Assembly: GCA_964551735.1 (NCBI GenBank)
Contig: CAZKEF010000019.1
Coordinates: 51,958-83,957, forward strand
Direction of reading: 5' to 3'
Length of the DNA: 32,000 nucleotides
DNA from: an uncultured Anaerolineales bacterium
Lineage (GTDB): Bacteria > Chloroflexota > Anaerolineae > CG2-30-64-16
In this document: positions 8,325-29,602 of the stretch, one piece after another
Numbering within the stretch: position 1 is the first letter of the stretch
Layout: the number at the start of each line of letters is the position of its first letter
The notes under the pieces: generated by a model
What the model was told of the DNA's origin: nothing
Databases searched by the model: none
Seen by the model: the letters and a program-made list of their open reading frames with translations, nothing else
Position numbers and translations under genes: made by a program

Positions 8325-8337
8325 GATAAACCTTTCC

Positions 8338-9153: not shown

Positions 9154-9197
9154 CGGTGCTACTCCTTAGCGAAATAGGAACTCGGTCACGCAATCTC

Positions 9198-9226: not shown

Positions 9227-9231
9227 GCCAG

Positions 9232-9289
9232 GCGAATCAGCGAATGGCGAATGACGAACAAAAGCGACTATCGGACTATCGGACTACCG
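9232..9289. repeat. Short tandem repeats (heptamers GCGAATG x about 4, then octamers GACTATCG x3)
   Basis: Read directly: GCGAATC a GCGAATG GCGAATG ACGAACA aaagc GACTATCG GACTATCG GACTACCG. The array lies between the ATL gene stop (9297) and the promoter at 9198-9226. Confidence 0.8.
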
Positions 9290-9296
9290 TGCCATC

Positions 9297-9647
9297 TCAC
9301 TGCCACAACGCCTCAATCTCCGCCCAGTCCATCCCCTCCCAACCAAAACGCCGCCAGTCCACGTAGCCGCGCATATCGAACGCAACTCCCTCCTCTTCCA
9401 GCAGCGCGCGTTGGAGGTCGGCGCCCAGGTCGGCGCGGGAGATGCTGATGCGGCCCGCGCTGTTGATCACCCGCTGCCATGGAACGTCGGCAACCTCGCT
9501 CCCGCGCAGCGCGTTCAACGCCCAGCCGACCGTACGCGCGGCCTGCGGATGGCCCAGCAGCGCGGCGATCTGGCCGTAGCTGGCCACTTTGCCGCGGGGA
9601 ATCTGCCGGACGACGGCGTAGACGCGCTCGAAGAAGCTGGGTTCCAT
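9297..9647 (-). CDS. Alkyltransferase-like (ATL) protein, an MGMT-family DNA-binding domain without the acceptor Cys
   Basis: FFERVYAVVRQIPRGKVASYGQIAALLGHPQAARTVGWAL...VPWQRVINSAGRIS aligns by eye with E. coli YbaZ/Atl. The MGMT PCHRV motif reads PWQRV here (Cys replaced by Trp). Confidence 0.8.
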   Translation of the reverse strand: MEPSFFERVYAVVRQIPRGKVASYGQIAALLGHPQAARTVGWALNALRGSEVADVPWQRVINSAGRISISRADLGADLQRALLEEEGVAFDMRGYVDWRRFGWEGMDWAEIEALWQ

Positions 9648-12858: not shown

Positions 12859-12861
12859 TCG

Positions 12862-13857: not shown

Positions 13858-13861
13858 CAGG

Positions 13862-14251
13862 TCATGTCCCTACCGCGTCGCGGATGTGATTCAGGCGGGT
13901 GATGGCGCCGTCGGCGGCAAGCTCCAGGGCGACGATATCAATGCGCACGGGGCCAGCGAAGGGCACCTCGAACAGGTAAGCTTCAGACATGGCGATAAGC
14001 TGGAGCTGCTTGCGAGGCGTGACCGACTCTTCGGGCGTGCCGGCGGTCGGCGCCGCACCCCGGCGGCCGACGCGACGGGTGCGCACCTCGACAAACACCA
14101 GCCACTCGCCGTCGCGCGCGACGATGTCCAGCTCACCGGCCCGAGTGCGCCAGTTGCGAGCCAGGATCTCCCAACCCTGAGTTACCAGGTGGGCAGCCGC
14201 CAACGCCTCGCCCTGGCGGCCCAAGCTTACCCGTGCATCACGGCCGGCCAT
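13862..14251 (-). CDS. yraN: YraN-family (UPF0102) endonuclease-like protein
   Basis: GRQGEALAAAHLVTQGWEILARNWRTRAGELDIVARDGEWLVFVEVRTRR is the YraN signature. The gene overlaps the rnhB stop by 14 nt. Confidence 0.8.
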   Translation of the reverse strand: MAGRDARVSLGRQGEALAAAHLVTQGWEILARNWRTRAGELDIVARDGEWLVFVEVRTRRVGRRGAAPTAGTPEESVTPRKQLQLIAMSEAYLFEVPFAGPVRIDIVALELAADGAITRLNHIRDAVGT

Positions 14252-14945
14252 GTTGATCTCCGGGGAAAAAAGCCGGACCGCCGCGAGCTGCGATATCCGG
14301 GGTTGCGATGGATGTGCTCACGGGCCGAAAGCTCCGGCGATGCAGAGCGCACGGCCCCAGCCGCGCCAGGGCCTGAGCGTGGGCCGTCACGCCGTAGCCC
14401 TTATGACCAGCGAAGCCATAGCCGGGAAACGCCTCATCCTGCGCAGCCATCCAGCGATCCCGCGTAACCTTCGCCACGATGGAGGCAGCGGCGATAGAAA
14501 GCGAAGCCGCGTCGCCGTGCGGGATGCCGCGCTGCGGCTTGGCCAGGCCGGGCAGGGTCAGGTAATCCACCAGCACGAAGTCAGGCGCCACGGCCAGGGC
14601 GGCCAATGCAGCCAGCATCGCAGCCCGCGTGGCGGGAGCGATACCGACCCGGTCAATCTCGGCGGATGACATCGAACCCACCCCGACAGCTAACGCACGT
14701 TGCTCGATCAGCGCCAATGCACGCTCACGCGCGGCCGGCGTGAGGCGCTTGGAGTCATCCACGTGACCCAGCAACGGCGCCAGCGCGGCGGGATCGGCGG
14801 GCAGGATGACCGCGGCCGCGACCACCGGCCCAGCCCAGGCCCCCCGACCGGCCTCGTCCACGCCGGCGATCGCCCGATAGCCCGCGGCCCATAGCGCTTG
14901 CTCGTGTTCCAATCCTGCCCGTTCTGGTGGTGACGGATGACGCAT
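14238..14945 (-). CDS. rnhB: Ribonuclease HII
   Basis: The AGVDEAGRGAWAGPVVAAAVIL (DEAGRG) and DSKRLTPAARE motifs are present. The position after rplS is the common arrangement. Confidence 0.9.
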   Translation of the reverse strand: MRHPSPPERAGLEHEQALWAAGYRAIAGVDEAGRGAWAGPVVAAAVILPADPAALAPLLGHVDDSKRLTPAARERALALIEQRALAVGVGSMSSAEIDRVGIAPATRAAMLAALAALAVAPDFVLVDYLTLPGLAKPQRGIPHGDAASLSIAAASIVAKVTRDRWMAAQDEAFPGYGFAGHKGYGVTAHAQALARLGPCALHRRSFRPVSTSIATPDIAARGGPAFFPGDQHGRP

Positions 14946-14950
14946 TCTCT

Positions 14951-14991
14951 AAACCACAAAAGGCGCAGGGACCTATGCATCCCTGCGCCTT
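14951..14991 (-). terminator. Intrinsic terminator/attenuator downstream of rplS
   Basis: aaggcgcaggga (14960-14971) pairs perfectly with tccctgcgcctt (14980-14991) around an 8-nt loop. On the minus strand the stem is followed by TTTTGTGGTTT. It ends 6 nt before the rnhB ATG (14945). Confidence 0.7.
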
Positions 14992-15015
14992 ATTGCATGA
15001 AGCCATCGGCCAAAA

Positions 15016-15366
15016 TCAGGCCGCGCGTTCCTTCAAGCGCGCCGCCTTGCCGGTGCGGCCGCGGAGGAAGTACAACCGCGCACGGCGGACCTTGGCGTGC
15101 CGCAGCACCTCGATCTTGTCGACGCGGGGCGAAGCAAAAAGGAACGTGCGCTCCACACCCACACCGTGGGAAGCAATACGCCGGACAGTGAAATTCTTGT
15201 TGACGCCGCTGTTGCGCACACGGATCACCAAGCCCTGGAACACCTGTACGCGTTCCTTTTCACCTTCCACGATCAACGTGTGCACCTTCACCGTGTCACC
15301 GGGAGTCAAATCGGGCAAATTCGGCCGAGCGGCCGCAGCATCAAGAGAAGCAATCAAGTTCGACAT
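15016..15366 (-). CDS. rplS: 50S ribosomal protein L19
   Basis: MSNLIASLD...PDLTPGDTVKVHTLIVEGEKERVQVFQGLVIRVRNSGVNKNFTVRRIASHGVGVERTFLFASPRVDKIEVLRHAKVRRARLYFLR is canonical L19. The ATG at 15366 has a GAAGGG RBS upstream. Confidence 0.95.
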   Translation of the reverse strand: MSNLIASLDAAAARPNLPDLTPGDTVKVHTLIVEGEKERVQVFQGLVIRVRNSGVNKNFTVRRIASHGVGVERTFLFASPRVDKIEVLRHAKVRRARLYFLRGRTGKAARLKERAA

Positions 15367-15449
15367 CGTTACAATACCCTTCGTTGGCAGTTCTTCGGCC
15401 GCGTTACCCCAAATCGGAAAGCGCAACGCTGCTTATGTGACGAAACACC

Positions 15450-15478
15450 ATTTTAGCACAAAGGGGCTTGTGAACCAA
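15450..15478 (-). promoter_or_regulatory. Sigma70-like promoter for rplS, downstream of trmD
   Basis: The minus strand reads TTGGTT (15478-15473), a 17-nt spacer, then TGcTAAAAT (hexamer 15455-15450). It uses the same tttgTGCTA context as the promoters at 9198 and 18458. Confidence 0.5.
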
Positions 15479-15493
15479 ATCCAGGGGTTAACG

Positions 15494-16327
15494 CTATTCA
15501 TTGGCTGAACCCGCCTCCCCCGCCGCCGCTTCTGCCCGCAACCTATCCAGGAAGGCTCGATCCGCGTCCGACAGCGGCGCCGAGTTCAACAGGTCGGGCC
15601 GGCGCTCCCAGGTGCGGCGCAACGCCTGCTCCCGCCGCCACCGCGCCACCTTCGCGTGGTCGCCTGAGGTCAGGATCTCGGGGATGCCTTCCCCGCGGTA
15701 ACTGGCCGGCCGGGTGTATTGCGGATATTCCAGCAGCCCCGTGGCGAATGAATCCTCGAACGCGGCCATCTCACAGCCCAAAGCGCCGGGCTGCAGCCGG
15801 GTCACCGCATCCACGATGATCACTGCAGCCAGCTCGCCGCCGGAGATCACGAAGTCACCGATGGAGATCTCGTCGGTGACCAGGCCCAGGCGCACGCGCT
15901 CATCCACCCCCTCGTAGCGGCCGCACAACAGCGCGATGCGCCGATACCCAGCCAGCTCCTCGGCCACTTTTTGAGTGAAGGTGCGGCCCTGGGGCGACAG
16001 GAGGATGACGGGCACGTCCAGCGGCAGCAGCGTTTCCTCAGGGATGGGCGGCTCGTCCTCCGGCGCCGCAGGCACGAAGGTCCAGCCGGGCGGATAGCTG
16101 AGGGCCGTCTCCACGGCCCGGAAGATGGGCTCCGGCTTCATCACCATGCCGCCGCCGCCGCCGTAAGGCGTGTCGTCGGTGACCCGGTGCCGGCCCGTCG
16201 CGTAATCGCGGATGTTGTGCAACGCCACCGACAGGATGCCGGCCTCCTGCGCCCGCTTCAGGATGCTGTCGCTCAAGGCCCCAGCGAACATGCCGGGAAA
16301 AAGCGTGAAGATATCGAAGTGGATCAC
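15494..16327 (-). CDS. trmD: tRNA (guanine37-N1)-methyltransferase
   Basis: (GTG)[66 protein letters not shown] is canonical TrmD. There is an internal ~30-aa Pro/Glu-rich insertion. Confidence 0.9.
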
Positions 16328-18486: not shown

Positions 18487-18522
18487 TGCTTTTGATAGCA
18501 ATATCCATCAAGGAGGCCCCCT

Positions 18523-18828
18523 GTGACCCTCGCCAACTGGCGTGATCTCGCAGTTGTTCTGCTAGCCGTTGAGGCGTTTTTCATCAGCCTGATACCGGGT
18601 GTGATCCTCTACTTTGCCGTGCGCGGGATGCTGTGGGTGATCCGCAAACTGCGCGTCACGGCACCCACTGTCCAGGGCTACTTCCGTAAAGCAGCCGATA
18701 TCTCCGAACAGGTTAGCCAGCGCACTGCTGCCCCCTTCATTGCGGTCAGTGCCACCCTGGCCCAGGTGAATCGCTGGCGGTCCGCACCCATGACCTTGCT
18801 GAAATCAATGAAAGAGGCATCCCCGTGA
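18523..18828 (+). CDS. Small membrane protein (101 aa), hypothetical
   Basis: The GTG start has an AGGAGG RBS 6 nt upstream. There is one clear TM segment (LAVVLLAVEAFFISLIPGVILYFAV). Confidence 0.6.
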   Translation: MTLANWRDLAVVLLAVEAFFISLIPGVILYFAVRGMLWVIRKLRVTAPTVQGYFRKAADISEQVSQRTAAPFIAVSATLAQVNRWRSAPMTLLKSMKEASP

Positions 18829-19049
18829 CATCCCGTAACACAGCTATCATTATCGGCGGCGCGGTCGGCGCTGTGCTGGGCGCCACTGCCGCCTGGGCAT
18901 ACACGCAAGCGCAACAGGGCAAACTGATCAGCGGCGTCGAGGCCGGCCAACAACTGCGGCTGCAAGCCGGAGCGCCGGACTATGTCAAAATCGCGGTGGC
19001 GGTAGTTGCCCTGGTACGCCAGGTGACTGACCTGTTCAAGCCGGGTTGA
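18825..19049 (+). CDS. Small Gly/Ala-rich membrane protein (74 aa), hypothetical
   Basis: GTGA start/stop overlap with the previous gene, with AAAGAGG 7 nt upstream. The TM-like segment is AIIIGGAVGAVLGATAAWAY. Confidence 0.55.
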   Translation: MTSRNTAIIIGGAVGAVLGATAAWAYTQAQQGKLISGVEAGQQLRLQAGAPDYVKIAVAVVALVRQVTDLFKPG

Positions 19050-19312
19050 GCATCCGCCCAAACACGCTTTCGTTGCCACTCGCGAGCGCACTGCAAAATA
19101 GCCGAAACGTCCAGGCTGCTGTGGCAGCGTTTATCACGAGATCGCCATTCGTTATGCGTGATTTACAGGCAAGAGCCGAATTTTATTGAGTTAGATGCAA
19201 TTCTACCTTGCACAGGGCGGGTTGTCAAATCAATCCTGTGCGGCAAGACATGGCAGCCAATTGTTGATATCCCCGCAGGGTGGGATGAAAAGCACCGTTC
19301 AAAGGCCTGCCC

Positions 19313-21097
19313 ATGAAACAACGAACTGCGCTGACGGGTTGGCTCCTTCGCCTGCGCCAGGCATTATCCGCCCACCGATGGGTCATCATCGGCCTGCTCT
19401 GGCTAGCCACTCTCCTCTTAGGCTATATCGGTTTCAGCAACTACGCGATGGCTACAGGCGGTGTCCAAGCGCGCATGGACACGCTTTATCTGACGATCCA
19501 GCTCTTTATCTTGGAGTCGGGATCGGTGCCCGGTCCGAAGCCGTGGGAACTGGAGGCCGCGCGGTTGCTGGCCCCCACTGTGGCGGCATACACCGCCGTG
19601 CAAGCGTTGGCGCTGCTGTTTGCAGAGCAATTCCAGGCCCTTCAGCTCCGCTTCGCACGCCACCACGAGATCATCTGTGGGCTGGGCCGTCGCGGCACGC
19701 TGTTGGCCCGTTCTTTTCGGGCGCAGGGCCATCGGGTTGTCGTCATCGAACAGGACCACAACAACGACGCCATCAGAGCCTGCCGGCAGCAGGGTATCAT
19801 CGTGCTCATTGGTGACGCCCGCAACGCTGATCTGCTCCTACGCGCCGGCGTGCTGCACGCTCGCCATCTGATCGCCGTGTGCGACGATGATGGGGTAAAC
19901 GCCGAGATCGCCGTGCAGGCCCGACGGCTGTCCGCTCGCCGGGGCGGGTTGCCCCTCACGTGCCTGGTGCACCTGGTGCAACCGCAGTTGTGTGAGTTGT
20001 TGCACGACCGCAGCTTCGATTCAGCCAATCATAACACCTTCCGCCTGGAATTCTTCAATACGTTTGACCTGGGCGCGCAACTCTTGCTGGAGAGATTCCC
20101 GCCGCTGCGGGAAGGGCAAACCGGGCCACCGCACATGGTGCTCCTGGGGTTCGGCAGCCTGGGGCAAAGCCTGGCCCTCCGCGCCGCACGCGCTCGGACG
20201 TGTGGCCGTGAACCCCCCAATGAGCGCTTGCGGATCACAGTGGTCGATCGCGAGGCCGAGCGAAAAGTCAAGCTGATCATTCTGCGGTATCCCCGGCTGC
20301 ACGAAGCGTGTGACTTGGTTCCGTGCGCGATTGACCTGCGGGGGCCCGAGTTTCAACAGGCGGACTTCCTGCGGGATGAGGCGGGCCAGCTGTGCGTCAC
20401 CGCTATCTACAGTTGCCTTGACGACGATGCACAGGGGCTAATGGCCGCGCTGACGTTGGCAGCCCATGTGCGCGATCAGGATATCCCTATCGTCATCCGC
20501 ACCAGCAGCCGCGGTGGCCTGGCAAGCCTGCTCTACCGGGATGACGCCACAGACAGTTACAGCTCACTGCACGCATTTCCTCTCCTGGAGTACAGTTGCA
20601 CGCCGAGCCTGGTTTTGGGGGGCATGCATGAAACCGTGGCCCGCGCATTGCATCAACGGTATGTGCAACAAGGCGAGGCGCAAGGCCAGACCCCCGCATC
20701 GAATCCCTCCATAGTGCCCTGGGACCAATTGACGGCCGAAATCCAAGAGGGCAACCGCACCCAGGCGGATGCGATCAGCGCGATGCTCCGTGCAGCAGGG
20801 TACAGCCTGGCCCCACTCACAGATTGGAGCGCCTGGCGATTCCGCTTCCCCGAAGCTGATGTCGAGCTGATGGCCCAATTGGAGCACAAACGTTATGTTA
20901 CCGAACGGCTCCGTGCCGGCTGGTCCCTGGGGCCTAAAGACATCGCCGAAAAAACGAATCCGAACCTGGTGCCGTGGGAACAACTGACGCCCGACGCGCA
21001 AGAGCGCACCCGCCACCCCATCCGTGAGCTACCCTGCATCTTGGCCGAGGCCGGGCTTGAAGTGTATCCGATGAAAAGGGGTGGCAAACATGGATGA
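19313..21097 (+). CDS. Channel-like 2-TM protein with tandem Rossmann (TrkA-N/RCK-like) domains and a C-terminal bipartite RyR module
   Basis: The N-terminus has TM1 WVIIGLLWLATLLLGYIGF, a pore-helix-like DTLYLTIQLFILESGSVPGP (no TVGYG filter) and TM2 LLAPTVAAYTAVQALALLF. Rossmann 1 is EIICGLGRRGTLLARSFRAQGHRVVVIEQD. Rossmann 2 is HMVLLGFGSLGQSLALRAA. The C-terminal RyR-like repeats are ARALHQRYV...VPWDQLTAEIQEGNRTQADAI and LEHKRYVTERLRAGWSLGPKDIAEKTNPNLVPWEQLTPDAQERTRHPIRELPCILAEAGLEV. Confidence 0.75.
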   Translation: MKQRTALTGWLLRLRQALSAHRWVIIGLLWLATLLLGYIGFSNYAMATGGVQARMDTLYLTIQLFILESGSVPGPKPWELEAARLLAPTVAAYTAVQALALLFAEQFQALQLRFARHHEIICGLGRRGTLLARSFRAQGHRVVVIEQDHNNDAIRACRQQGIIVLIGDARNADLLLRAGVLHARHLIAVCDDDGVNAEIAVQARRLSARRGGLPLTCLVHLVQPQLCELLHDRSFDSANHNTFRLEFFNTFDLGAQLLLERFPPLREGQTGPPHMVLLGFGSLGQSLALRAARARTCGREPPNERLRITVVDREAERKVKLIILRYPRLHEACDLVPCAIDLRGPEFQQADFLRDEAGQLCVTAIYSCLDDDAQGLMAALTLAAHVRDQDIPIVIRTSSRGGLASLLYRDDATDSYSSLHAFPLLEYSCTPSLVLGGMHETVARALHQRYVQQGEAQGQTPASNPSIVPWDQLTAEIQEGNRTQADAISAMLRAAGYSLAPLTDWSAWRFRFPEADVELMAQLEHKRYVTERLRAGWSLGPKDIAEKTNPNLVPWEQLTPDAQERTRHPIRELPCILAEAGLEVYPMKRGGKHG

Positions 21098-23570
21098 AAA
21101 AACATCTGATTTCGGATGGACGCAGGCCCAGATCGCACAATATGAGCTGGCCTTCCCGCGCTATCAGCAATATGCCGACACGCTGCACAGCGTGCTGAAC
21201 CAGGCCACCAAGAAACATGCGCCCCACGCGATCGTACAAGCGCGACCCAAGGCCATCGCCAGTTTCGCGGAGAAGATCCAGCGCAAGCGCCACAAGTACC
21301 GCGACCCGATCAACCAGATCACCGACCTGTGCGGCGGCCGAGTTATCACGCACACCCCGGAGGAAGTCCGGGCGATGTGCGCCTTCATCGAGCAGCATTT
21401 CACCATTGACTGGGATAACACCATCGATGTATCGCAGCGCCTCAAGCCGACCGAGTTCGGCTATCGGTCAGTGCATTACATCGCGCAGTTCAAGCCCGGT
21501 GTCTTCCCCAACGATATTGTCACCACGGAAATCCCAGAGACAGTGTACGGCCTCAAAGCCGAAATCCAAGTCCGCACCATTTTGGAGCACGCCTGGGCTG
21601 ATTTCAACCATCGGCTGGTCTATAAGAGCCCCTTCCCCATCCCCACCAAATGGCAGCGCGAATTCGCGGGCCTGGCCGCCATCCTGGAACGCACAGACAC
21701 CGCGTTTGCCGCCATTGAAACCGGATTCAAGACCTACGCGACCAACTATGGCACCTACATGACCGCTGAACAGATGCGGGATGAGATCGCTTTGCTGGAG
21801 ATCGTCATGGCATGTGACCCCGACAACGTCGATCTCGCCCATCGGATCGGCAAGTTGGCGGTTACGTTGGGCGATTGGAAGAAGGCGATCAGCATCTTCT
21901 CACGTTATGTTCACACAGGCTATCAACCCATCCTCAAGGACCTCGGGATCGCGCTGTGCAAGCTGCACGTTGAGAGGCCGGACAGCCCCGAGTATCAGCA
22001 AGGCCGGCGCTACCTGGAGCAGGCCAGCGCGCCTGAATACCGGGATGCGGATGCCCTGGCGTCGCTGGCAAGCACCTGGAAACGGTCTGACCCGGATCGG
22101 GCGCGGCAACTCTACCGGCAAGCATTTGAGGCGAATCCCGAAGATCCGTATGCGTTGGGGCAGTACCTGGAATACGAGATCGCCCATCGACGCGACATGC
22201 ACCTGGCAACACTGCTCCGCCCGGTCATCGAAGCGGCGATCGAACGGTGTCGCGAGCGCGCAGAGGTGGGGGTCGACCTGCCGTGGGCATACTACGACAT
22301 CGGCAGGTTCTCGCTACTGCTAGATAGACCCTATGATAGCCTGAACGCTTACATTAGGGCCGTCCACTTAACCAACGATGACTGGATGGTCGAAACCTCA
22401 TTGCAGTCGGTGGAGCGTCTCGCCGTGGTGGCTGCGATCCTACCAGGTCATGCATGGGTGCGACGCTTCCTATGGCTGGCGCGCGCGACCAAATTCGACG
22501 TGGCGCAGGCCCGAGAGGAGCTCAAGCGGCTGGCATCAGCCGGCCAAGCGCCGATTCGCGGGCCAGTGGTATTGGTGGCCGGGGCCTGCGATGCCAGCGA
22601 GGAGCACCTGATCCAGGGCTACCGGCCCCTGTTGATGACCGCCTTTGCCGGCTTCCACGGCACCATCATCTCAGGCGGCACCCGCGCCGGGGTCGCCGGC
22701 CTGGCGGGTGACGTGCAGCAGACCTACCCGGCCGACATCCGCACCATCGGCTATGTCCCGCAGCGACGCCCCACCGATGTCATGATGGATGAGCGCTACG
22801 GTGAGATCCGTTACACCACGGGCGATGACTTCAGCCCGCTGGAGCCGCTCCAATACTGGACCGACCTGGTCGCCTCCGCGATTGCCGCGTCCGATGTCAA
22901 GCTGATCGGCATGAGCGGAGGGACCATCGCCGCAGTGGAATACCGTATGGCCCTGGCGCTGGGCGCACGGGTCGCGGTGATTGAGGCCAGCGGCCGGGCC
23001 GCGGCCAGGCTACTTGCCGACGACAACTGGCGCACCTCGGAAGCGCTCCTGCTCTTGCCGGCCGAGGGACAGATCGTGCACGAATTCGTCCGCCCAACGA
23101 TGGACCAACTTCTGCCTGCACAGCGAGAACACATCGGCCAGGCCATCCACCGGGCCTACTGTGAAGCAGAGGCCAACCTCCTGCAGTACGACGATCCTGC
23201 GTTGGCGCCCTGGGGCGCGTTGCTGGACTATCTGAAGGAATCCAACCGGCTGCAGGCTGATCATATCCCGGAGAAGATGCGCCAGATCGGCTGCCGCATT
23301 GTGCCGGCGCACGGCCGCGCAGCAACACCGATCACGTTCACAGATGCCGAGATTGAGACGCTGGCTTGTGCCGAGCATGCGCGTTGGGTCATCGAGCGCG
23401 TACGCGACGGCTGGAAACCGGGCGCGCAACGCGACGTGTTGCACAAAATCAGTCCCTACCTCACAGCATGGGACGCGCTGCCCGAGGAAATCAAAGAGCG
23501 CAGCCGATGCATCGTGCGCAAGATCCCGACATTCCTTGCCGAGGTGCAGCTCGAAATTCAACGCGGGTGA
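21090..23570 (+). CDS. RelA/SpoT-family nucleotide pyrophosphokinase fused to TPR repeats, an LSDAT-type SLOG domain and a bipartite RyR module
   Basis: The ATG at 21090 overlaps the upstream stop (ATGGATGA) and has AAGGGGTGG upstream; an alternative GTG lies at 21081. The synthetase motifs are all present: ARPKAIASFAEKIQRK, DLCGGRVI, EFGYRSVHYI, AEIQVRTILEHAWADFNHRLVYK. The middle region is TPR-like (aa ~240-470). The SLOG part reads GPVVLVAGACD...TIISGGTRAGVAGLAGD...IGYVP...LIGMSGGTIAAVEYRMALALGARVAVIEASGRAAARLLAD, and the last motif resembles the GSGRaADlLA of TRPM-type LSDAT domains. The C-terminal RyR-like repeats are IHRAYCE...APWGALLDYLKESNRLQADHI and AEHARWVIERVRDGWKPGAQRDVLHKISPYLTAWDALPEEIKERSRCIVRKIPTFLAEV. 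Confidence 0.8.
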   Translation: MDEKTSDFGWTQAQIAQYELAFPRYQQYADTLHSVLNQATKKHAPHAIVQARPKAIASFAEKIQRKRHKYRDPINQITDLCGGRVITHTPEEVRAMCAFIEQHFTIDWDNTIDVSQRLKPTEFGYRSVHYIAQFKPGVFPNDIVTTEIPETVYGLKAEIQVRTILEHAWADFNHRLVYKSPFPIPTKWQREFAGLAAILERTDTAFAAIETGFKTYATNYGTYMTAEQMRDEIALLEIVMACDPDNVDLAHRIGKLAVTLGDWKKAISIFSRYVHTGYQPILKDLGIALCKLHVERPDSPEYQQGRRYLEQASAPEYRDADALASLASTWKRSDPDRARQLYRQAFEANPEDPYALGQYLEYEIAHRRDMHLATLLRPVIEAAIERCRERAEVGVDLPWAYYDIGRFSLLLDRPYDSLNAYIRAVHLTNDDWMVETSLQSVERLAVVAAILPGHAWVRRFLWLARATKFDVAQAREELKRLASAGQAPIRGPVVLVAGACDASEEHLIQGYRPLLMTAFAGFHGTIISGGTRAGVAGLAGDVQQTYPADIRTIGYVPQRRPTDVMMDERYGEIRYTTGDDFSPLEPLQYWTDLVASAIAASDVKLIGMSGGTIAAVEYRMALALGARVAVIEASGRAAARLLADDNWRTSEALLLLPAEGQIVHEFVRPTMDQLLPAQREHIGQAIHRAYCEAEANLLQYDDPALAPWGALLDYLKESNRLQADHIPEKMRQIGCRIVPAHGRAATPITFTDAEIETLACAEHARWVIERVRDGWKPGAQRDVLHKISPYLTAWDALPEEIKERSRCIVRKIPTFLAEVQLEIQRG

Positions 23571-23585
23571 AAGGAGGCGGACACC

Positions 23586-26567
23586 ATGGCATCGGAATCC
23601 AATAGATACGATGTCTTCATCAGCTATCCGCACGCCCAAAAGACGATGGCCGATGCCGTGTGCGCGACGTTGGAGCAGAATAAGATCCGCTGCTGGATCG
23701 CGCCCCGTGACGTGCTGCCCGGCGAACCGTTCGCGAAAGCCATCATCCGCGCCATGAACGAAAGCCGTTTGTTCGTCCTCGTCTTCAGCGCCGAGACCAA
23801 CGAGTCAAATCACGTAAAAAACGAAGTTGAGCGGGCGGTGTCCAAGGGGCTCTCGATCATCGTGTTCCGCGTTGAAGATGTCGTGCCTACCGAAGAGATG
23901 GAGTACTACCTGTCGCGGCGCCATTGGCTGGACGCGATGACGCCACCGATCGAGGCCCATTTCCAGAAACTGATCCAGGCCATCAGGGCGTTGCTGGCCA
24001 TCCCATCCTTGGAGGCCGCGCCGGACCAAAGCGAACAGAAGGTGGCCGACTTGCGCGTACGCGCCCGGGAAGCCGCGGCGCAAGCCGACTGGGACCTGGC
24101 CGTGGCCCTGCTAGGTCAGGCTGCGACGGTCTCACCCGATGACCCCAAGACCGCCGAGATGTTACAGGCCGTCCGGCGTGACCAGCATCTGGCTGACCTG
24201 CGCCGGCAAGCCCAAGAACGTCTGGCCATCCGCGACTGGACCGGCGCCATTGCCATCCTGGAGGAAGCCTCCAGCTTGCAGCCGGATGACGCCGACCTAA
24301 CGGCCATCTTGCGTCGCGCACAGAGCAGTCAGCGTCTGATCGAGCTGCGCGGCCAGGCTGAGGAGTTCCTGACCGTTCGAGATTGGGCCGGCGCCATCGC
24401 GATCTTGGAGAAAGCCATACAACTGGCCCCCGACGACCCTGAACTTACTGGCAGCTTGCGCCGCGCGCAACGCGGCCAAAGCCAGGATGATCTCAAAGCC
24501 CAGGCCCTGCACCTGGCCGCACAACACGATTGGCAGGGCGTGCTCGTGCTGCTGAAGCAGGCGCCCGAGCTGGCCGCAGAGGACGCCGAAGTGCAGCGGC
24601 TGGCAGCGCAAGCGGCGCGTGAGCAGCGGATCGCTGATCTGCAGGTGCGCGCCAAGTCAGCGTACAGCGCCCGGCAATGGGCGCAGGCGCTGCCGTTGCT
24701 GGAAGAGCTGCGCGCGTTGACGCCCGATGACGCCGCCGCCCGCGATATGCTGGCCACGACCACCCGCGAGGGCGCCCGCCAGAGGCAACTCGACGCGCTG
24801 ATAGCCCATGCCGAGGACACCGTGACCCGCGCACGCAGCGCGGCCACTACAGGCCAATGGGAGGCGGCCGAGCGCGGTTGGCAGGATGCCGCCTACGCAT
24901 GGGGCACCGTAGTCACCGCGCTGGAAGAGCACCTCGCGATGGCGCCCCAGGACGCTACGCGGCGGGAGCGCCTGACCGAGGCTCAGCGCGGGCAAAAGGA
25001 GGCGGCACAACAGGCTGGACGCCTGCGGGATCTGGCCCAGCGCTATGCCGACGCGCAGGCCGCGCTCGACGCGGCCCGGCCCGACCAGGCCGTGCCGTTG
25101 CTCAGCGCCATCATAGCCGAGGCGCCGGGCTATCGCGATACGGTGGAGCTGTTGCGCCGTGCGCAACGCAAGGTGAAAGGTGGTCCCTTCCCGCGCCGCC
25201 GCATGCTCTGGATCGGCGCAGCCGCACTGGTGCTCATCGTGGTAACGGCGGCAATCTTGCTGTCGGGCGTCTTGCAGCGCGGCGCCGCGTCTGAGCGCGC
25301 GACGACATTGCAGCAAGCGCTGACGAACCAATGGGTGGACGCGCAGATCCGCGGCACTGGCGCGGCCTACGGCGACTGCATCACGGCCCGGCTGACGCGG
25401 CGCATCCCAGACATCCTGCCGCTTGACCTCGCCCAGGGCACCCTTCTGCTCAGCAAAACCTCAACAGTGCAGGACATGGTCGTGCTGCGGGTCCGGGCCA
25501 TCATCAACCAGGATGGTGGCCTAACCCCCACAGACGCGATCCGCATCGCCGATGACAACCCCCAGGAGTATCTGATCGAAGCATATGGGCTGAACAGCAG
25601 CCTGGCGGCGCCGGGCGTCGGGGCCGCCTTCGTCGTCGCCGGCCCGGCAGACGAAGCTGTTCAAAGCACCCTGCGGGCAGCCGCCCAGCTCACCCCTGAC
25701 GGCGCCGCACAGGCGGGCGCAGCGCTGCAATTGGCGCTTTGGCTGCACGCTGACCACGAAAACCGTGCTGCCATCTGCCAGCGCATCAACTGCAAGGCCG
25801 AGGACCTGGCGCTGGCAGAACAGATCCTGGGGCTGGCCGGCTTCGGTCCGCCCCCCACACCCACTGCCACGGCCACAGCCCTGCCGACCGCCACCCTGAC
25901 GGCGGAACCAACGATCGCCACGCCCTTCCTGCGCCGCGCAGCCACCGACACCCCCACGCCGACCGCCACTGCGACATCCACGCCGCTGCCATCAGCCACC
26001 ATGACCGCCACCGCAACGCCGGCCCGCAGCGCTACACCGACGCCACGCCCAAGCGCCACCGCAACGCGCACCCCGGCCGCGCCGCTGCGCATCGTCACGC
26101 CAACGCGTCCGCCTGCGCCGCCGGCGTCCGGCCTGGCCCCGCAGACACCGGCCGACGGCCAGATCTTCATCGGCCGCAGCACTGTCATCCGGCTGGCCTG
26201 GACGCCCGCCACACGGCCGCTGGCTGGGGACGAATATTACCTGGTGACGATCCTTTTCCCTCACGAACAAGCAACATGGACCGACTCTCAATGGACGCGC
26301 ACTCCAGAGGTCACCGTACCGGCTTACCTGTACGATAATGTGACCGGCGACCGCAGCTTCCGCTGGCAGGTCTCCCTGGTGCGCCTGAACGCGGGCGACC
26401 CTTCAGGAGACCCGCAAGGCAAGACGACCCTGATCGTTGCACCCGGCGCGTGGCGCACCTTCAGGTGGCTGCCCGAGGCTGAAGGCGGGGGCGGGGGTGG
26501 GGGCGGCGAGGTCATACCGACGAACACCCCCCGCCCTGAAGAACCGACAATAACGCCCAGGCCTTAA
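23586..26567 (+). CDS. N-terminal TIR-domain protein with 49-aa helical repeats, one TM helix and a large extracytoplasmic C-terminal region
   Basis: An AAGGAGG RBS lies 8 nt upstream, and the gap from the previous stop is 15 nt. The TIR_2-like N-terminus is YDVFISYPHAQKTMADAVCATLEQNKIRCWIAPRDVLPGEPFAKAIIRAMNESRLFVLVFSAETNESNHVKNEVERAV. Five to six repeats of the DWxxAIAILEEAxxLxPDD type follow. The TM helix is RRRMLWIGAAALVLIVVTAAILLSGVL, with positive charges on the N-side, so the TIR domain is cytoplasmic. After it come a ~190-aa domain, a PT-rich linker, a ~130-aa beta-rich domain and a Gly8 tract. Confidence 0.85.
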   Translation: MASESNRYDVFISYPHAQKTMADAVCATLEQNKIRCWIAPRDVLPGEPFAKAIIRAMNESRLFVLVFSAETNESNHVKNEVERAVSKGLSIIVFRVEDVVPTEEMEYYLSRRHWLDAMTPPIEAHFQKLIQAIRALLAIPSLEAAPDQSEQKVADLRVRAREAAAQADWDLAVALLGQAATVSPDDPKTAEMLQAVRRDQHLADLRRQAQERLAIRDWTGAIAILEEASSLQPDDADLTAILRRAQSSQRLIELRGQAEEFLTVRDWAGAIAILEKAIQLAPDDPELTGSLRRAQRGQSQDDLKAQALHLAAQHDWQGVLVLLKQAPELAAEDAEVQRLAAQAAREQRIADLQVRAKSAYSARQWAQALPLLEELRALTPDDAAARDMLATTTREGARQRQLDALIAHAEDTVTRARSAATTGQWEAAERGWQDAAYAWGTVVTALEEHLAMAPQDATRRERLTEAQRGQKEAAQQAGRLRDLAQRYADAQAALDAARPDQAVPLLSAIIAEAPGYRDTVELLRRAQRKVKGGPFPRRRMLWIGAAALVLIVVTAAILLSGVLQRGAASERATTLQQALTNQWVDAQIRGTGAAYGDCITARLTRRIPDILPLDLAQGTLLLSKTSTVQDMVVLRVRAIINQDGGLTPTDAIRIADDNPQEYLIEAYGLNSSLAAPGVGAAFVVAGPADEAVQSTLRAAAQLTPDGAAQAGAALQLALWLHADHENRAAICQRINCKAEDLALAEQILGLAGFGPPPTPTATATALPTATLTAEPTIATPFLRRAATDTPTPTATATSTPLPSATMTATATPARSATPTPRPSATATRTPAAPLRIVTPTRPPAPPASGLAPQTPADGQIFIGRSTVIRLAWTPATRPLAGDEYYLVTILFPHEQATWTDSQWTRTPEVTVPAYLYDNVTGDRSFRWQVSLVRLNAGDPSGDPQGKTTLIVAPGAWRTFRWLPEAEGGGGGGGGEVIPTNTPRPEEPTITPRP
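24087..24854 (+). repeat. Intragenic tandem repeat with an exact 147-nt (49-codon) period, coding TPR-like helical hairpins
   Basis: The D/Q-W codons that open each unit fall at 24087, 24234, 24381, 24528 and 24675, which are exactly 147 nt apart. A longer 180-nt unit then runs to 24855. The units are diverged at the DNA level. Confidence 0.8.
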
Positions 26568-26608: not shown

Positions 26609-29602
26609 ATGAAAACAAACCCGACACGCCACCGCACCCCCCGCATAGGGCTGCTGGCGCCGCTGCTGATCGCGACGCTGATCCTGGTCGGCGGCCTCAA
26701 CAGCGCCGCCGCGCCGCCGGCTCAAACAGGCGCCCCCTTCGAGGCGCGGCCGCTGCCGCCGGAGGCGCTCTCGTGGGGCGGATCTCCCGCCGTCAGTGCG
26801 CAAGCCTCGCGCAGCCCCAAGCTCGACTCATCCCTGGACGGCCTGGCCGCCGCAGCCCAGGATTCCCCGCAAACGGCATTGGCTCTGGCCCTCTCCCGCT
26901 CGCTGAAGTTGTCGGGAGATCGGGTTCAAGTACAGATCGTCACCCACGCGGCCGGGCTGCAACGAGCCATCCAGGCGGTGGCCGAGTCCGGCGGCGAAGT
27001 GACCAAAATCGGCAGCGACGCAGCCCTGATCCAGGGATGGCTGCCGGTCACGGCCCTGGAGGCCGTAGCCGCGCACGACGATATCTATCGCATCCACCGG
27101 CCGGCGGAACTGATCTACCTGGAACACCCGCAGGCTGGCAGTGTGACGACCGAAGGGCTGGCGGCGCTCAACGGCCCGGCCTGGCACACGGCCGGCTACC
27201 GGGGCGCTGGCGTCAAGATCGGCATCATTGACGGCGGCTTCCTGGGCTACACAGGCCTGCTGGGCACGGACCTGCCAGCGTCGGTCACTGCAAAAAACTT
27301 CGTGGACGGCGAAACCGACGGGCAGGTTGACGGGACCTCCAAACACGGCACCGCCTGCGTGGAGATCATCTACGATGTGGCGCCTGATGCGACCTTCTAC
27401 CTGGCCAAGATCGCCACGAACCTGGATCTGCAAGCAGCCGTGGCCTGGCTCAAAGACACGCACCACGTAGACGTGATCTCTACCTCCATCGGGTGGTACC
27501 ACTTGACGCCGGGCGACGGCACCGGTGAGTTTGCCGACCTGGTGCAGGATGCCCGAGACGCCGGCATCTTGTGGGCCACGGCGGCCGGGAGCGTACGCGA
27601 GGCGCACTGGGGCGGCCTGTACTATGACCCCGGCGGCACCGACACGCATCACTATAACCTCGAACAGGACGTGAACTATTTCGGCCCCGGCGACGGGAAC
27701 GCTTACCTGATCCCTGCGGGGTACCCGGTGACCGTCTTGCTCCGCTGGGATGACTGGACGGTCGTGAACCAGGATTACGATCTCTTCCTGCTGCGTTGGA
27801 ACGGCGAAAGCTGGGATATCGTTGCCGAAAGCAGTCAGGTTCAAGACGGCAGCCCGGGTCAGACGCCCACCGAGGACGTCTCAATCGTGGCCAGCGGCGC
27901 ATCTGCGCCCTATGGCTTCGTCATCGTGCGTTATGACAGCGACCGCGCGGTCAACTTCGAGGTGTTTGCGCCCAACCCTGGCGCGCGCCTCGATGAGATC
28001 TTGCCTGCCCGCAGCCTGGCTAACCTGGCGGACGCGCCGGACGTGGTCAGCGTGGCGGCGGTAGACGTGGTGTCGCCCTACCCGCAGGAGGTGTTCAGCT
28101 CAGAAGGGCCGACCAACGGACCCGGCGGCGCGGAAACGGGCGGGTTCATCAAGCCGGATATCGCCGCCTATTCCAGCGTGTCCACCGTCAGCTACGGCAC
28201 TACAGACAAGTTCAGCGGCACCTCGGCCGCTGCGCCCCACGTGGCCGGCGCCGCGGCGTTGGTGTTGAACGCCTACCCAGCCTATACCCCGAACCAAGTG
28301 GAATCGTTCCTGGAGGGGCGTGCCGTGGACATGGGGGCCAGCGGGATGGATACGATCTACGGCTACGGTCGGCTGCACCTGGGCGCCCCGCCGTCAGCCA
28401 CCACCACAACCCCCTCTCCCAGCCCAACGCCGACAGGAACGGTGACACGCACCGCGACGCCCACGGTGACCCGGACGCCAACCCCGACGATCACCCGAAC
28501 CCCCACGGCCAGGCTGCTCTTCCTGCCCCTGGTGCTGAAAAGCGGACTCTGCGACATTTATGAGCCGAACGATAGCATCGCTGCGGCCTGGGGTCCCCTG
28601 ATATCGGGCCAGGATTACCGCGCACGCCTATGCAAAGGCGACTACGAGGATAACTACTACCTGAACGCACTGCACACCCAACCGCTGGTCGTCAGGATAC
28701 GCCTGCCAGCCGCTCTGGTGAACCACACTGACGCCTGGATTTACCATGAGAGCAACCTCAAGACACCGCTTCCCGGTTGCGGCCGCGGCCCCATCACCAG
28801 CACGGATGAAACCGTTAGCTGTGCGATCACCCTGGACGGCCGCTACACGATCCGGCTATACACACACGACTCGAACGTCTACTATGAGAACAACCAGGAT
28901 TACATCTTGACCGCGACCTTTGCGCCCCAGGGCGGCACGCCCGTGTCACGAACACTCCTCTCCGTCGGCGATGCAACGGTCCTGGAGGGGTACTCAGGCT
29001 TTAACACAGGCACGGCAGCGGACATGTGGGCGGGCTATGATGACGGCATGGAACCCGACGGCAAGATCGTGCGCAGCCTGATCAAGTTCGACCTGAGCAG
29101 TGTGCCCGCGGGCGCCACCGTGCAAAGCGCCAAGCTGCGGGTCTACTACATGGGCTACTATGACTTTAGCAACCGCGAGCGCACCATCACCGCATACCGG
29201 TGCGTCGGCAACTGGACTGAGCTGGGCGTCAATTGGAACAACAAACCCAGCCCGGGCACGGCCTACGGCAGCGTAGTCATCATCTCAAACACCAATTGGG
29301 GCTGGCGCGAGTTGGACGTGCAGGGCCTGGTGCAGGGGTGGGTCAACGGCAGCATCCCCAACCAGGGCGTCATGCTGCGCGGACCGGAGGTCTCCGGCGC
29401 CGACTCGTCCTATCGCACTTTCAGCACGCGTGAGGGCCCCAACGCGCCCCAGTTGGCGATCACCTACCTTGCTGTAGCAGCCGCAAGCCCACCGCCGACA
29501 ATGCAGGCGCCTGTGCCGGCTGGCCCGAGCCTGCGTGAACAGTTGGGCAGCCCGAGCGCACCGACGGACGCCGACGGCAGGGAGCAGCAGATGTCGCGTT
29601 AG
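26609..29602 (+). CDS. Secreted S8 (subtilisin-like) serine peptidase with C-terminal PPC-like and DNRLRE-like domains
   Basis: A GAGGAGGG RBS lies 6 nt before the ATG at 26609. The signal peptide is MKTNPTRHRTPRIGLLAPLLIATLILVGGLNSAAA. The catalytic triad contexts are GVKIGIIDGGF (Asp), HGTACVEII (His) and GTSAAAPHVAGAAALV (Ser). After a PT linker come LLFLPLVLK, then CDIYEPNDSIAAAW (pre-peptidase C-terminal-like) and LLSVGDATVLEG...SLIKFDLSSVPAGATVQSAKLRVYY...WTELGVNWNNKP (DNRLRE-like, from recall). Confidence 0.85.
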   Translation: MKTNPTRHRTPRIGLLAPLLIATLILVGGLNSAAAPPAQTGAPFEARPLPPEALSWGGSPAVSAQASRSPKLDSSLDGLAAAAQDSPQTALALALSRSLKLSGDRVQVQIVTHAAGLQRAIQAVAESGGEVTKIGSDAALIQGWLPVTALEAVAAHDDIYRIHRPAELIYLEHPQAGSVTTEGLAALNGPAWHTAGYRGAGVKIGIIDGGFLGYTGLLGTDLPASVTAKNFVDGETDGQVDGTSKHGTACVEIIYDVAPDATFYLAKIATNLDLQAAVAWLKDTHHVDVISTSIGWYHLTPGDGTGEFADLVQDARDAGILWATAAGSVREAHWGGLYYDPGGTDTHHYNLEQDVNYFGPGDGNAYLIPAGYPVTVLLRWDDWTVVNQDYDLFLLRWNGESWDIVAESSQVQDGSPGQTPTEDVSIVASGASAPYGFVIVRYDSDRAVNFEVFAPNPGARLDEILPARSLANLADAPDVVSVAAVDVVSPYPQEVFSSEGPTNGPGGAETGGFIKPDIAAYSSVSTVSYGTTDKFSGTSAAAPHVAGAAALVLNAYPAYTPNQVESFLEGRAVDMGASGMDTIYGYGRLHLGAPPSATTTTPSPSPTPTGTVTRTATPTVTRTPTPTITRTPTARLLFLPLVLKSGLCDIYEPNDSIAAAWGPLISGQDYRARLCKGDYEDNYYLNALHTQPLVVRIRLPAALVNHTDAWIYHESNLKTPLPGCGRGPITSTDETVSCAITLDGRYTIRLYTHDSNVYYENNQDYILTATFAPQGGTPVSRTLLSVGDATVLEGYSGFNTGTAADMWAGYDDGMEPDGKIVRSLIKFDLSSVPAGATVQSAKLRVYYMGYYDFSNRERTITAYRCVGNWTELGVNWNNKPSPGTAYGSVVIISNTNWGWRELDVQGLVQGWVNGSIPNQGVMLRGPEVSGADSSYRTFSTREGPNAPQLAITYLAVAAASPPPTMQAPVPAGPSLREQLGSPSAPTDADGREQQMSR

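Follow-up and report, generated by a model that had tools for sequence, protein, structure and literature searches.

Which function would three tightly packed genes share when, between them, they encode a TIR domain, a RelA/SpoT-type synthetase, a SLOG domain, a channel-like membrane protein and two tandem RyR modules? The genes in question, designated g1, g2 and g3, occupy positions 19313-26567 of a 32,000-nucleotide stretch of DNA from an uncultured Anaerolineales bacterium (assembly GCA_964551735.1, contig CAZKEF010000019.1, positions 51,958 to 83,957 of the forward strand), which is referred to below in its full length as the window. A preliminary description, made from the letters alone, had proposed an undescribed conflict system with the logic of Thoeris, in which a TIR protein produces a nucleotide signal and a SLOG domain receives it. 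From comparisons of sequences and models, we propose with a probability of about one in two that the locus encodes a Thoeris-like module for nucleotide signalling, driven by a TIR protein and with one common type of sensor on both effectors. The robust pattern across genomes is the occurrence of one or more TIR genes together with at least one protein that ends in a tandem RyR module. This module is found fused to three outputs, namely an RCK channel, an AAA ATPase and a RelA-SpoT/TPR/SLOG protein, and the window joins the first and the third of these.

Organization of the locus

Calling of open reading frames (ORFs) placed the three genes as follows.

19313-21097, + strand: g1, 594 aa
21090-23570 (ORF open from 21081), + strand: g2, 826 aa counted from the ATG
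23586-26567, + strand: g3, 993 aa

These are the longest + strand ORFs of the region, all of them intact, and they fill 19313-26567. The letters of both junctions were inspected directly. At the g1/g2 junction, ATGGATGA, the ATG at 21090 overlaps the TGA at 21095-21097, which amounts to an overlap of 8 nt. The TGA of g2 at 23568-23570 is followed by the 15-nt spacer AAGGAGGCGGACACC, which contains AAGGAGG, and then by the ATG of g3 at 23586. The operon-like packing on one strand that had been described for these genes is confirmed by these junctions.

Domain composition of the three proteins

Profile searches supported every domain that the preliminary description had assigned, that is, TIR, LSDAT SLOG, RelA_SpoT, TPR, TrkA_N and RyR. 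The product of g3 was divided into four parts.

23607-23990, + strand: TIR domain with Glu E80 in NEVERA (TIR_2, TIR and ThsB_TIR)
24021-25175, + strand: Ala/Leu/Arg/Gln-rich helical repeat, TPR-like (weak TPR_14 and TPR_7 matches; composition)
25218-25280, + strand: transmembrane (TM) helix with RRR in front, N-terminus predicted inside (hydropathy)
25293-26564, + strand: predicted extracytoplasmic part (composition)

Its TIR domain was matched in Pfam by TIR_2 (7.6e-20), TIR (4.5e-8) and ThsB_TIR (9e-6), with weaker matches to the Thoeris type III and retron-TIR models of NCBIfam, and E80 aligns with a Glu that is kept in 95% of 38 neighbouring TIR domains. The helical repeat region extends over ~380 residues and precedes the TM helix, where hydropathy reaches 2.74 over aa 538-568. 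In the predicted outside part of ~420 residues, which no Pfam family matched, a Thr/Pro/Ala linker lies between a globular region and a second region, and a Gly/Pro tail comes last. In the closest relative, this outside part is 48% identical and the TIR domain 80%.

The product of g1 combines a membrane module with soluble domains.

19376-19651, + strand: pore-like module (DSSP on the model, hydropathy)
19661-20614, + strand: tandem Rossmann/RCK domains (TrkA_N, motif conservation, fold matches)
20624-21070, + strand: tandem RyR (R12-like) module (Pfam RyR, Foldseek)

An AlphaFold2 model of g1, built with 28 homologues in the alignment (pLDDT 85.8), runs from TM1 (aa 22-48) through a short re-entrant helix (54-63), a loop reading LESGSV and a long TM2 with its extension (78-113) to two Rossmann domains and a helical tandem repeat. 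Among the Foldseek matches of this model, the GsuK channel ranks first (E 4e-11 across 530 columns), and further matches are TrkA rings, MthK, CASTOR/DMI1 and human RyR3 Repeat12 (TMt 0.47-0.59). Pfam recognized TrkA_N at 1.3e-20 and RyR at 8e-14 in two stretches. Pfam did not detect the second Rossmann domain, for which the evidence is the invariant G279-x-G281-x-x-G284 and D312 together with the match in fold to GsuK and TrkA, both tandem-RCK proteins, and the earlier claim of two NAD-type Rossmann domains on a channel-like protein stands. Their motifs are GLGRRG with E146 and GFGSLG with D312, in which the Gly and acidic residues are invariant or nearly so. In the pore region, Y59 and Q63 are invariant while S69 and G70 are kept in 27 of 28 homologues. 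A TVGYG K+ selectivity filter was not found in the 28-sequence alignment, where the conserved loop reads LESGSV and contains no GYG. Since LESGSV takes the place of TVGYG, the K+ selectivity of g1 is doubtful. The family is large, with more than 549 homologues, and every one of them has both TrkA_N and RyR.

In g2, four regions follow one another.

21090-21734, + strand: RelA/SpoT-type nucleotidyltransferase (synthetase) domain (Pfam, RelP/RelQ matches)
21747-22532, + strand: TPR-like all-helical region (weak TPR_19 and TPR_17 matches; model)
22545-23105, + strand: SLOG domain of the LSDAT clade (LSDAT_prok, model)
23115-23567, + strand: tandem RyR (R12-like) module (Pfam RyR at 6.8e-10, PDB sequence and fold matches)

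A database protein, P0001, is identical to g2 across all 826 aa, and the AlphaFold2 model of g2 has a pLDDT of 86.7. Pfam matches to the full protein were RelA_SpoT (1.6e-17), TPR, LSDAT_prok (1.7e-5) and RyR. The nearest solved relatives of the synthetase domain are RelP and RelQ, both by sequence (2e-9) and by fold (TMt 0.61-0.69). The statement that all catalytic motifs are present was borne out by an alignment of 23 diverse homologues, in which R52, K54, D79, G82, R84, Y125, R126, H129, E158, Q160 and H167 are invariant; the motifs DLCGGR, GYRSVHY and EIQVRT...H are likewise invariant across the family. Helices span aa 220-481 of the model.

The SLOG region required closer attention because LSDAT_prok scored 24.6 bits on full-length g2, just under the gathering score of 25.4. 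On the excised domain the score rose to 30.4 bits against the same cut-off, and 22 of 22 homologues matched, the best at 4.8e-12. The model shows a beta-alpha-beta pattern over aa 493-656, and the motifs SGGTxxGxxGLxG and GxxGGxIxxxEY are fully or almost fully conserved. When the SLOG region was compared with PDB sequences, neither sequence nor profile searches returned a meaningful match. Foldseek with the full g2 model was dominated by TPR-plus-Rossmann proteins of the SPY/OGT type, SPY and OGT being the top matches, and did not isolate a SLOG structure. The assignment of this region as SLOG is thus based on the Pfam match and the modelled beta-alpha-beta fold. The RyR module of g2 matches the repeats of RyR1/2/3 and a Bacteroides thetaiotaomicron protein in the PDB by sequence, and its last 150 residues align in structure with the entire tandem R12 of RyR3 (~199 columns, TMt 0.59). 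Some members of the g2 family (P0056, P0063, P0065 and L008 1466-4645) are longer, ~1050-1060 aa, and carry an extra C-terminal KaiC/RecA-like ATPase domain (PF06745).

Gene neighbourhoods of g1 and g2 relatives

Two sets of loci were compiled to describe the surroundings of these proteins. The g2-centred set consisted of 82 loci and the window (83 entries), in which ORFs were called and partners within 6 kb were identified using home-built hidden Markov models. The g1-centred set consisted of 83 loci, and its counts were taken from the 39 with at least 6 kb of flank. TIR ORFs proved to be concentrated beside both families. Near g1 their density is 0.218/kb within 1 kb versus at most 0.03/kb in bins beyond 4 kb, which provide an internal control, and near g2 it drops from 0.119/kb within 1 kb to at most 0.02/kb beyond 4 kb. 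A secondary peak at 3-4 kb from g1 probably represents TIR genes that lie past the ~2.7-kb gene of an AAA-RyR protein. Expressed as loci, a TIR gene is found within 6 kb of g1 in 21 of 39 and near g2 in 25 of 83. Three g1 relatives chosen for their long contigs, regardless of g2, are all beside TIR genes; one of these loci (L084) is a two-gene TIR+g1 operon and two also carry an AAA-RyR protein. TIR_2 ranked first among the Pfam families of the 90 remaining neighbours (11/90). Since TIR genes concentrate beside the relatives of g1 as well as those of g2, the Thoeris-like logic suggested earlier is reasonable.

The further expectation that the three genes are conserved as a unit did not hold. 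A g1-type gene occurs near g2 in 21 of the 83 entries, a g1-type gene and a TIR gene together in 9, and none of the three partners considered in 20, some of these contigs being short. The commonest partner of g2, absent from the window, is instead a gene for a ~140-aa NUDIX protein (52/83), mostly directly upstream and on the same strand. The entries with the trio are the window, L001/L002, L003, L004 (Anaerolineae), L018 (Bacteroidales), L021 (Planctomycetota), L036 (Chloroflexia) and L041 (Gaiellaceae). They represent 8 distinct places because L001 and L002 are the same sequence from two sources, and they span four phyla (Chloroflexota, Bacteroidales, Planctomycetota and Actinomycetota). The g1-centred set added three further trio loci, L086, L087 and L089. 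With the trio in only 9 of the 83 g2-centred entries, a fixed three-gene system was rejected. Around g1, another RyR-domain protein is present in 24 of 39 loci and a g2-type gene in 6, such that g1 mostly occurs with a TIR gene and another RyR protein and without g2.

Several trio loci have two different TIR genes bracketing g2 (L003 at 6645-9500 and 12489-15500; L087; L089). One such arrangement has a TIR-TM-WD40 gene upstream and a gene for a TIR protein of 1003 aa downstream, and another has the gene order g1-TIR-g2-TIR. Other neighbours of g2 encode TIR-TM-WD40, DUF4062-NACHT-TPR, SLATT_1, ClpB-like and ~880-aa AAA-RyR proteins. The AAA-RyR proteins, ~880-905 aa with an ATPase region of the AAA type and a C-terminal tandem RyR, were found at L030 7922-10558, L083 12719-15436 and L085 4794-7436 and in ~20 more g1-centred loci, where they adjoin TIR genes and g1 relatives.

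The g2 family is both large and widespread. More than 734 proteins match it and 279 genome stretches were confirmed. The nearest relatives come from metagenome-assembled genomes of Anaerolineae/Chloroflexota. Full-length identity is 40-60% in Chloroflexota, Planctomycetota, Gemmatimonadota, Bacteroidales, Actinomycetota and Verrucomicrobiota, and the family is equally well conserved in the archaeal Bathyarchaeia, Methanomicrobia and Thermoplasmatota.

The NUDIX gene, exemplified by L003 9543-9968, is the most conserved partner of the g2 family, and it is missing also from the closest relatives of the window, L001, L004 and L009. Its product has as nearest solved relatives MutT-related proteins, NudI, MutT and NudG, not ADP-ribose (ADPR) pyrophosphatases. 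For this reason an ADPR pyrophosphatase was considered less likely than a nucleoside triphosphate (NTP) or alarmone pyrophosphohydrolase. Hydrolysis of ppGpp has been reported for MutT and NudG. Where it stands beside g2, the NUDIX protein probably holds the product of g2, or the signal, below threshold.

RyR modules as candidate receivers

The preliminary description regarded the SLOG domain as the receiver of the signal and the RyR modules as decoration. The SLOG domain itself was confirmed, but the RyR module is at least as likely to be the receiver, since it is the one sensor common to both putative effectors and since phage RyR proteins of the R12 type bind cyclic ADPR (cADPR) isomers, including 2'/3'cADPR in the nanomolar range. 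The latter knowledge comes from two preprints of 2026, in which phage RyR (R12) proteins were found to defeat Thoeris (PMC13232231; doi 10.64898/2026.06.04.730250). RyDEP, a glycosidase with a His/Asp dyad, binds and cleaves 2'/3'cADPR; H75 and D117 act while W78 and H100 hold the ligand (PMC13232231). Eight of its homologues were assayed, of which six bound signals and none cleaved them, and the two that were characterized further are nanomolar sponges (PMC13232231). RyR Tad binds 1''-3' gcADPR with a Kd of 43 nM, and it also binds 1''-2' gcADPR and cADPR (doi 10.64898/2026.06.04.730250). Both RyDEP and RyR Tad dimerise via their RyR domains (PMC13232231; doi 10.64898/2026.06.04.730250). The family PF02026 was termed 'previously uncharacterized' in the RyDEP preprint (PMC13232231). 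Neither preprint treats cellular RyR-domain proteins, and a literature search found nothing on such proteins in TIR operons.

The ligand residues of RyDEP were mapped onto the cellular modules by alignment of RyR repeats rather than via the RyDEP structure. Of 193 cellular RyR modules beside these gene families, nearly all retain the His and the aromatic residue in repeat 2, and the Asp is kept in ~65 of 70 g2-type, ~68 of 97 g1-type and 25 of 26 other modules. Within this group of 26 others, 12 match the H-W-H-D pattern of RyDEP exactly. The residues equivalent to H75/W78/H100/D117 read H, W, S/H, D in most relatives; in repeat 2 of the window they read H-W-S-S in g2 and H-Y-N-T in g1. H763 and W766 of g2 are invariant, and the equivalent of D117, a Ser in the window, is Asp in 19 of 23 relatives. 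The RyR modules of the g1 and g2 families are 33-43% identical to each other, and in both models the tandem repeats form an intramolecular pseudo-dimer.

We compared the Asp position between g1 and g2 of the same locus. It is Asp in both proteins in 12 loci, another residue in both in 3, and mixed in 2. L001, which belongs to the same clade as the window, has Thr in g1 and Asn in g2, as compared with Thr and Ser in the window. The replacement of the Asp in both modules of this clade could reflect a changed ligand that is common to g1 and g2. The three entries without Asp, however, are one clade, with L001 and L002 being the same sequence, and the co-variation is weak evidence because it represents a single event.

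Proposed mechanism and alternatives

We propose the following course of events. The membrane-anchored g3 would have its TIR domain inside and its variable domain outside, and it could be triggered by infection with phage, by damage to the envelope or by a kin signal. Once triggered, the TIR domain would convert NAD+ to an ADPR-derived signal, for example a cADPR isomer or a relative of one. This signal would be bound by the C-terminal tandem RyR (R12) modules of g1 and g2, and the LSDAT SLOG domain of g2, perhaps its TPR region too, may also bind it. Binding would open the pore of g1, a putative GsuK-like RCK channel without the K+ selectivity filter, and ion gradients would dissipate. In g2, it would release the synthetase to make a toxic or growth-arresting alarmone such as (p)ppGpp or (p)ppApp, or to pyrophosphorylate another acceptor. 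The affected cell would arrest growth or die. The direction from g3 to g1 and g2 is proposed because the enzyme of g2 and the pore of g1 are fused to ligand-binding modules, whereas the TIR domain of g3 is fused to repeats and an outside domain.

Several observations weigh against this mechanism. The trio is a minority arrangement: NUDIX is the sole partner in 26 of the 83 g2 loci and 20 have none of the three partners, suggesting that g2 can work without an adjacent TIR protein. The window for its part has no NUDIX gene anywhere, though most g2 relatives carry one. The residue equivalent to D117 of RyDEP and D171 of RyR Tad is lost from both window modules (S805 in g2 and T566 in g1), and that equivalent to H100 is Ser in g2 and Asn in g1; because of these replacements, the binding of classical cADPR isomers is less certain in the window than in most relatives, and the ligand of the window modules may differ from that of most relatives, judging by these residues. 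The flanks consist of housekeeping genes (RNase HII, TrmD, MiaA, an SBP protein and CN_hydrolase), not of a defence island, and known defence genes are merely scattered among the neighbours of the family loci. Synteny with a 75%-identical relative is retained, the locus lying between SBP_bac_3/TrmD/RNase HII and CN_hydrolase. RelP and RelQ, to which the RelA-SpoT domain is closer than to the toxic toxSAS enzymes, are bona fide (p)ppGpp synthetases, and this fits physiological signalling equally well.

As an alternative, the locus may be a resident module of physiological signalling rather than of immunity, in which the same wiring would help a filamentous, Chloroflexota-like bacterium to adapt to stress or would bring about cell death during its development. 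Here g3 would report an envelope or extracellular cue via an NAD-derived metabolite, g2 would answer with a stringent-response alarmone and g1 would adjust K+ or cation flux. We consider this unlikely, though it is the most probable of the three alternatives. It would accord with the housekeeping flanks, among which no integrase, transposase or other mobile-element gene was found, as the preliminary description had said; with the retained position and order in the 75%-identical relative; with the small number of known defence genes among the neighbours; and with the kinship to RelP and RelQ. The predicted receptor-like topology of g3 with its outside domain would suit it as well, and RCK proteins such as GsuK and TrkA are ordinary regulators of ion homeostasis. 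A defence role, on the other hand, is favoured by a patchy, cross-domain distribution with near-identical architecture in distant bacteria and archaea, by the shuffling of partners that include STAND proteins (DUF4062-NACHT-TPR), SLATT, TIR-WD40 and AAA-RyR, and by a sensor part of g3 that diverges fast (48% versus 80% identity for TIR). Such a spread, with g2 40-60% identical across phyla and archaea, would be typical of conflict systems. Moreover, the bacterial multigene TIR-signalling operons that have been studied experimentally are so far all antiphage.

Two other explanations concern the wiring itself. The locus may consist of two independent modules side by side, that is, a TIR-channel pair of g3 and g1 resembling type X Thoeris, and an alarmone synthetase or toxin, g2, which normally has a NUDIX antidote and would sense something other than the product of g3, such as ADPR, NAD metabolites or its own product. 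The two-gene TIR+g1 operon of L084, the many TIR+g1 loci without g2, the 26 loci of g2 with NUDIX and without TIR or g1, and the resemblance of NUDIX to the NTP pyrophosphohydrolases MutT, NudI and NudG all point in this direction. This explanation is nevertheless improbable, given that g1 and g2 share the same type of tandem RyR at 33-43% identity, that TIR genes are concentrated within 1 kb also of g2 relatives without g1, and that in the window g1 and g2 overlap by 8 nt with g3 15 nt further on; the sole clade in which g2 lost the RyR Asp also lost it in g1, which as one event counts for little. Alternatively, the RyR modules may not be receivers at all. They could degrade or buffer the signal as RyDEP does, leaving SLOG, TPR or RCK as the true sensors, or they could be homotypic adaptors that join g1 and g2. 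RyDEP with its His/Asp dyad offers a precedent, and most g2-type and other RyR modules have equivalents of both residues; in ThsA, according to the introduction of Yirmiya et al., SLOG has been proven to sense 3'cADPR, TPR domains have been proposed as cADPR sensors in type VIII Thoeris and BcTpr, and RyDEP and RyR Tad dimerise through their RyR domains. Yet only one of nine assayed phage RyR proteins, RyDEP, is catalytic, though the residues are conserved, and signal hydrolysis by the window modules is unlikely because both are without the Asp. In addition, g1 has neither SLOG nor TPR, and in TIR+g1 operons RyR is the only candidate sensor of an ADPR-type ligand besides RCK. As for adaptors, the tandem repeats are already an intramolecular pseudo-dimer in the models, which leaves less need for pairing between proteins. 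Of the three alternatives this last one receives the least credence from us, and we retain the Thoeris-like module with a common RyR sensor as the working model.

Implications

If the proposed wiring is right, RyR R12 would be a new class of sensor, and TIR signalling would gain two new outputs, a RelA-SpoT synthetase and an RCK channel; NAD-derived and alarmone-type second messengers would be joined in one pathway. PF02026 would acquire a cellular role, which would explain why phages carry RyR as an anti-Thoeris sponge or glycosidase. We also entertain, as a tentative and rather doubtful generalization, that cellular RyR (R12) modules are native prokaryotic receptors of TIR-made cyclic ADPR-type signals, with g1 as a channel gated by cADPR isomers, g2 as part of a two-tier cascade and both as members of a large TIR-RyR family. 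Were it true, g1 would be a bacterial counterpart, possibly a forerunner, of the debated cADPR-ryanodine receptor axis of animals. In g2, an NAD-derived first signal would be coupled to a second, alarmone-type nucleotide, a two-tier cascade that is undescribed for defence or signalling systems, and together with the AAA-RyR proteins there would be a large unrecognized TIR-RyR family in uncultured bacteria and archaea. Tests of direct binding of, and gating by, cADPR-type ligands would become possible with a bacterial R12 that is small and soluble and a simple channel that bears it; for animal ryanodine receptors this question is not yet settled. If the physiological explanation is the correct one, the locus would be a rare case of prokaryotic TIR signalling outside immunity. 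What would surprise a specialist is the presence of RelA-SpoT and RyR-tagged effectors beside TIR genes.

Upstream region and flanking genes

The region 5' of g1 had been described as an AT-richer gap of 263 nt.

18829-19312, + strand: AT-richer non-coding stretch 5' of g1, presumed promoter region (GC content, sequence, consensus scan)

The composition was as described, with a GC content of 0.58 for 18501-19500 versus ~0.62-0.70 (about 0.65) in most flanking windows. The exact length depends on which upstream ORF is real, since the nearest ones end at 19091 (a doubtful minus-strand ORF) and at 18828. Consensus scans of the locus for promoters and terminators gave matches no better than chance and no convincing + strand promoter; upstream of g1 the only + strand promoter-like site, at 18825-18853, is weak. 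On the minus strand, at 19228-19200, there is a near-consensus sigma-70-like site (TTGACA-17 nt-TAGAAT, 11 of 12 matches) oriented away from g1. In two of the closest relatives, a gene for a membrane-anchored TPR protein of 984-986 aa is located directly 5' of g1 (L001 5173-8133 and L009 3275-6229). This gene is absent from the window, where the AT-richer gap is in its place.

Downstream of g3 and elsewhere in the window, the following genes were noted.

~26609-29602, + strand: g4, secreted S8 peptidase (subtilase) with C-terminal CBM96/DNRLRE, 41 nt past g3, with its own GAGGAGG
10762-12858, + strand: 698-aa CHAT (caspase-like) protein (4.7e-34)
5828-7243, - strand: PucC-family protein of the major facilitator superfamily (2e-73)
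1505-5782, - strand: 1424-aa protein with bacterial Ig-like domains, beside the PucC gene

The gene g4 may be co-transcribed with g3. It was rejected as a member of the system because L003 and every other locus apart from the closest relative lack similar genes. In L001 (75% identical), the position of g4 is held by two CBM96 proteins, one of which has an M4 peptidase domain. The CHAT gene, ~6.5 kb upstream of the locus, is surrounded by housekeeping genes; proteins with this domain are often part of the conflict and cell-death systems of multicellular bacteria. The PucC family is linked to the assembly of bacteriochlorophyll and light-harvesting complexes, and this gene hints at a phototrophic or related Chloroflexota host.

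Comparison with known systems

No complete named defence system was recognized at the locus, in agreement with the preliminary description. PADLOC reported PDC-S33, a single-gene candidate, on the RelA part of g2 as well as weak matches of ThsB and PDC-S66 to the TIR domain of g3. The Thoeris and retron TIR models of NCBIfam gave only weak matches, far below their cut-offs, and no Thoeris effector model in PADLOC or NCBIfam matched g1 or g2.

The likeness to Thoeris lies in the adjacency of a TIR domain with the catalytic Glu to proteins whose domains are elsewhere able to bind TIR-made ADPR derivatives: SLOG as in ThsA of type I, and RyR R12 as in the phage binders of Thoeris signals. This TIR-effector adjacency recurs across genomes, and operons with multiple effectors are known, such as ThsH+ThsI. 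The differences are that the SLOG domain of the window belongs to the LSDAT clade and that g3, which has 993 aa, a membrane anchor and an outside domain, is unlike the small ThsB. The window effectors, a RelA-SpoT synthetase and an RCK channel, and their RyR sensor differ as well: in the text and the table parts examined, the survey by Yirmiya et al. makes no mention of RyR, TrkA, RelA-SpoT or ppGpp (bioRxiv 2025.12.03.692087). The same parts of the survey describe 29 putative classes of Thoeris effectors and the validation of types V-XI (bioRxiv 2025.12.03.692087). Among these, type X pairs a TIR protein with an 'ion channel' effector, ThsK, and its signal is none of the known TIR products (bioRxiv 2025.12.03.692087). 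Like type X, the window has a TIR gene and a predicted ion channel, and the type X ligand leaves room for a new ligand at the window locus too. On the other hand, the TIR sequence of type X had no detectable similarity to any TIR in 165 loci, and ThsK and g1 were compared by description only. The claim of a novel combination therefore stands in so far as no named system matches and not in so far as the kind is concerned, for TIR plus ion channel already exists as type X Thoeris and the distance to known systems is smaller than first thought. The AAA-RyR proteins were considered as the 'ATPase' effector class in Table S1 of the survey, as far as that table was examined; with TIR identities of only 25-37%, the comparison is uninformative and the equation was dropped.

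RyDEP and RyR Tad share with the window modules the Pfam family PF02026, the R12 fold and the ligand-contacting His and aromatic residues. They are small viral dimers that destroy or sequester the signal, whereas the window modules are tandem, fused to cellular effector domains and encoded beside a TIR gene, with Ser/Asn at the H100 position and Ser/Thr at that of D117. The synthetase fold of g2 with all catalytic motifs is that of RelQ/RelP and of the toxSAS enzymes FaRel, CapRel and Tas1, RelP and RelQ being the best solved relatives. Unlike toxSAS, g2 is an 826-aa protein with TPR, SLOG and RyR regulatory modules and has no adjacent antitoxin or small adjacent gene in the window, and the partner of its relatives is NUDIX, not a small alarmone hydrolase. 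CapRel has a pseudo-ZFD and g2 is without one. The families SLOG and LSDAT were reportedly defined by Burroughs et al. in 2015 (NAR), who may already have catalogued an LSDAT-RelA/SpoT architecture.

In common with GsuK, MthK and TrkA, g1 has tandem Rossmann RCK domains after a 2TM pore that includes a re-entrant helix; GsuK, its top match, has two RCK domains per subunit and its structure was solved bound to NAD and to ADP. It differs from GsuK and MthK in the LESGSV loop in place of TVGYG and in the extra C-terminal RyR module. A broader likeness is to TRPM2 and ryanodine receptors, as the locus family holds LSDAT SLOG, NUDIX, R12 RyR on a channel and TIR (compare the cyclase SARM1). The LSDAT family of Pfam is named for the SLOG domain of TRPM, and TRPM2 contains NUDIX as NUDT9-H. 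In the prokaryotes these parts are on separate proteins, and the pore domains have no homology to the TRP or RyR pores; an evolutionary link to the animal channels is speculative. Taken together, the locus matched none of the described Thoeris types (I-XI) in these comparisons, yet it is the same kind of system and represents one combination within a modular TIR-RyR family.

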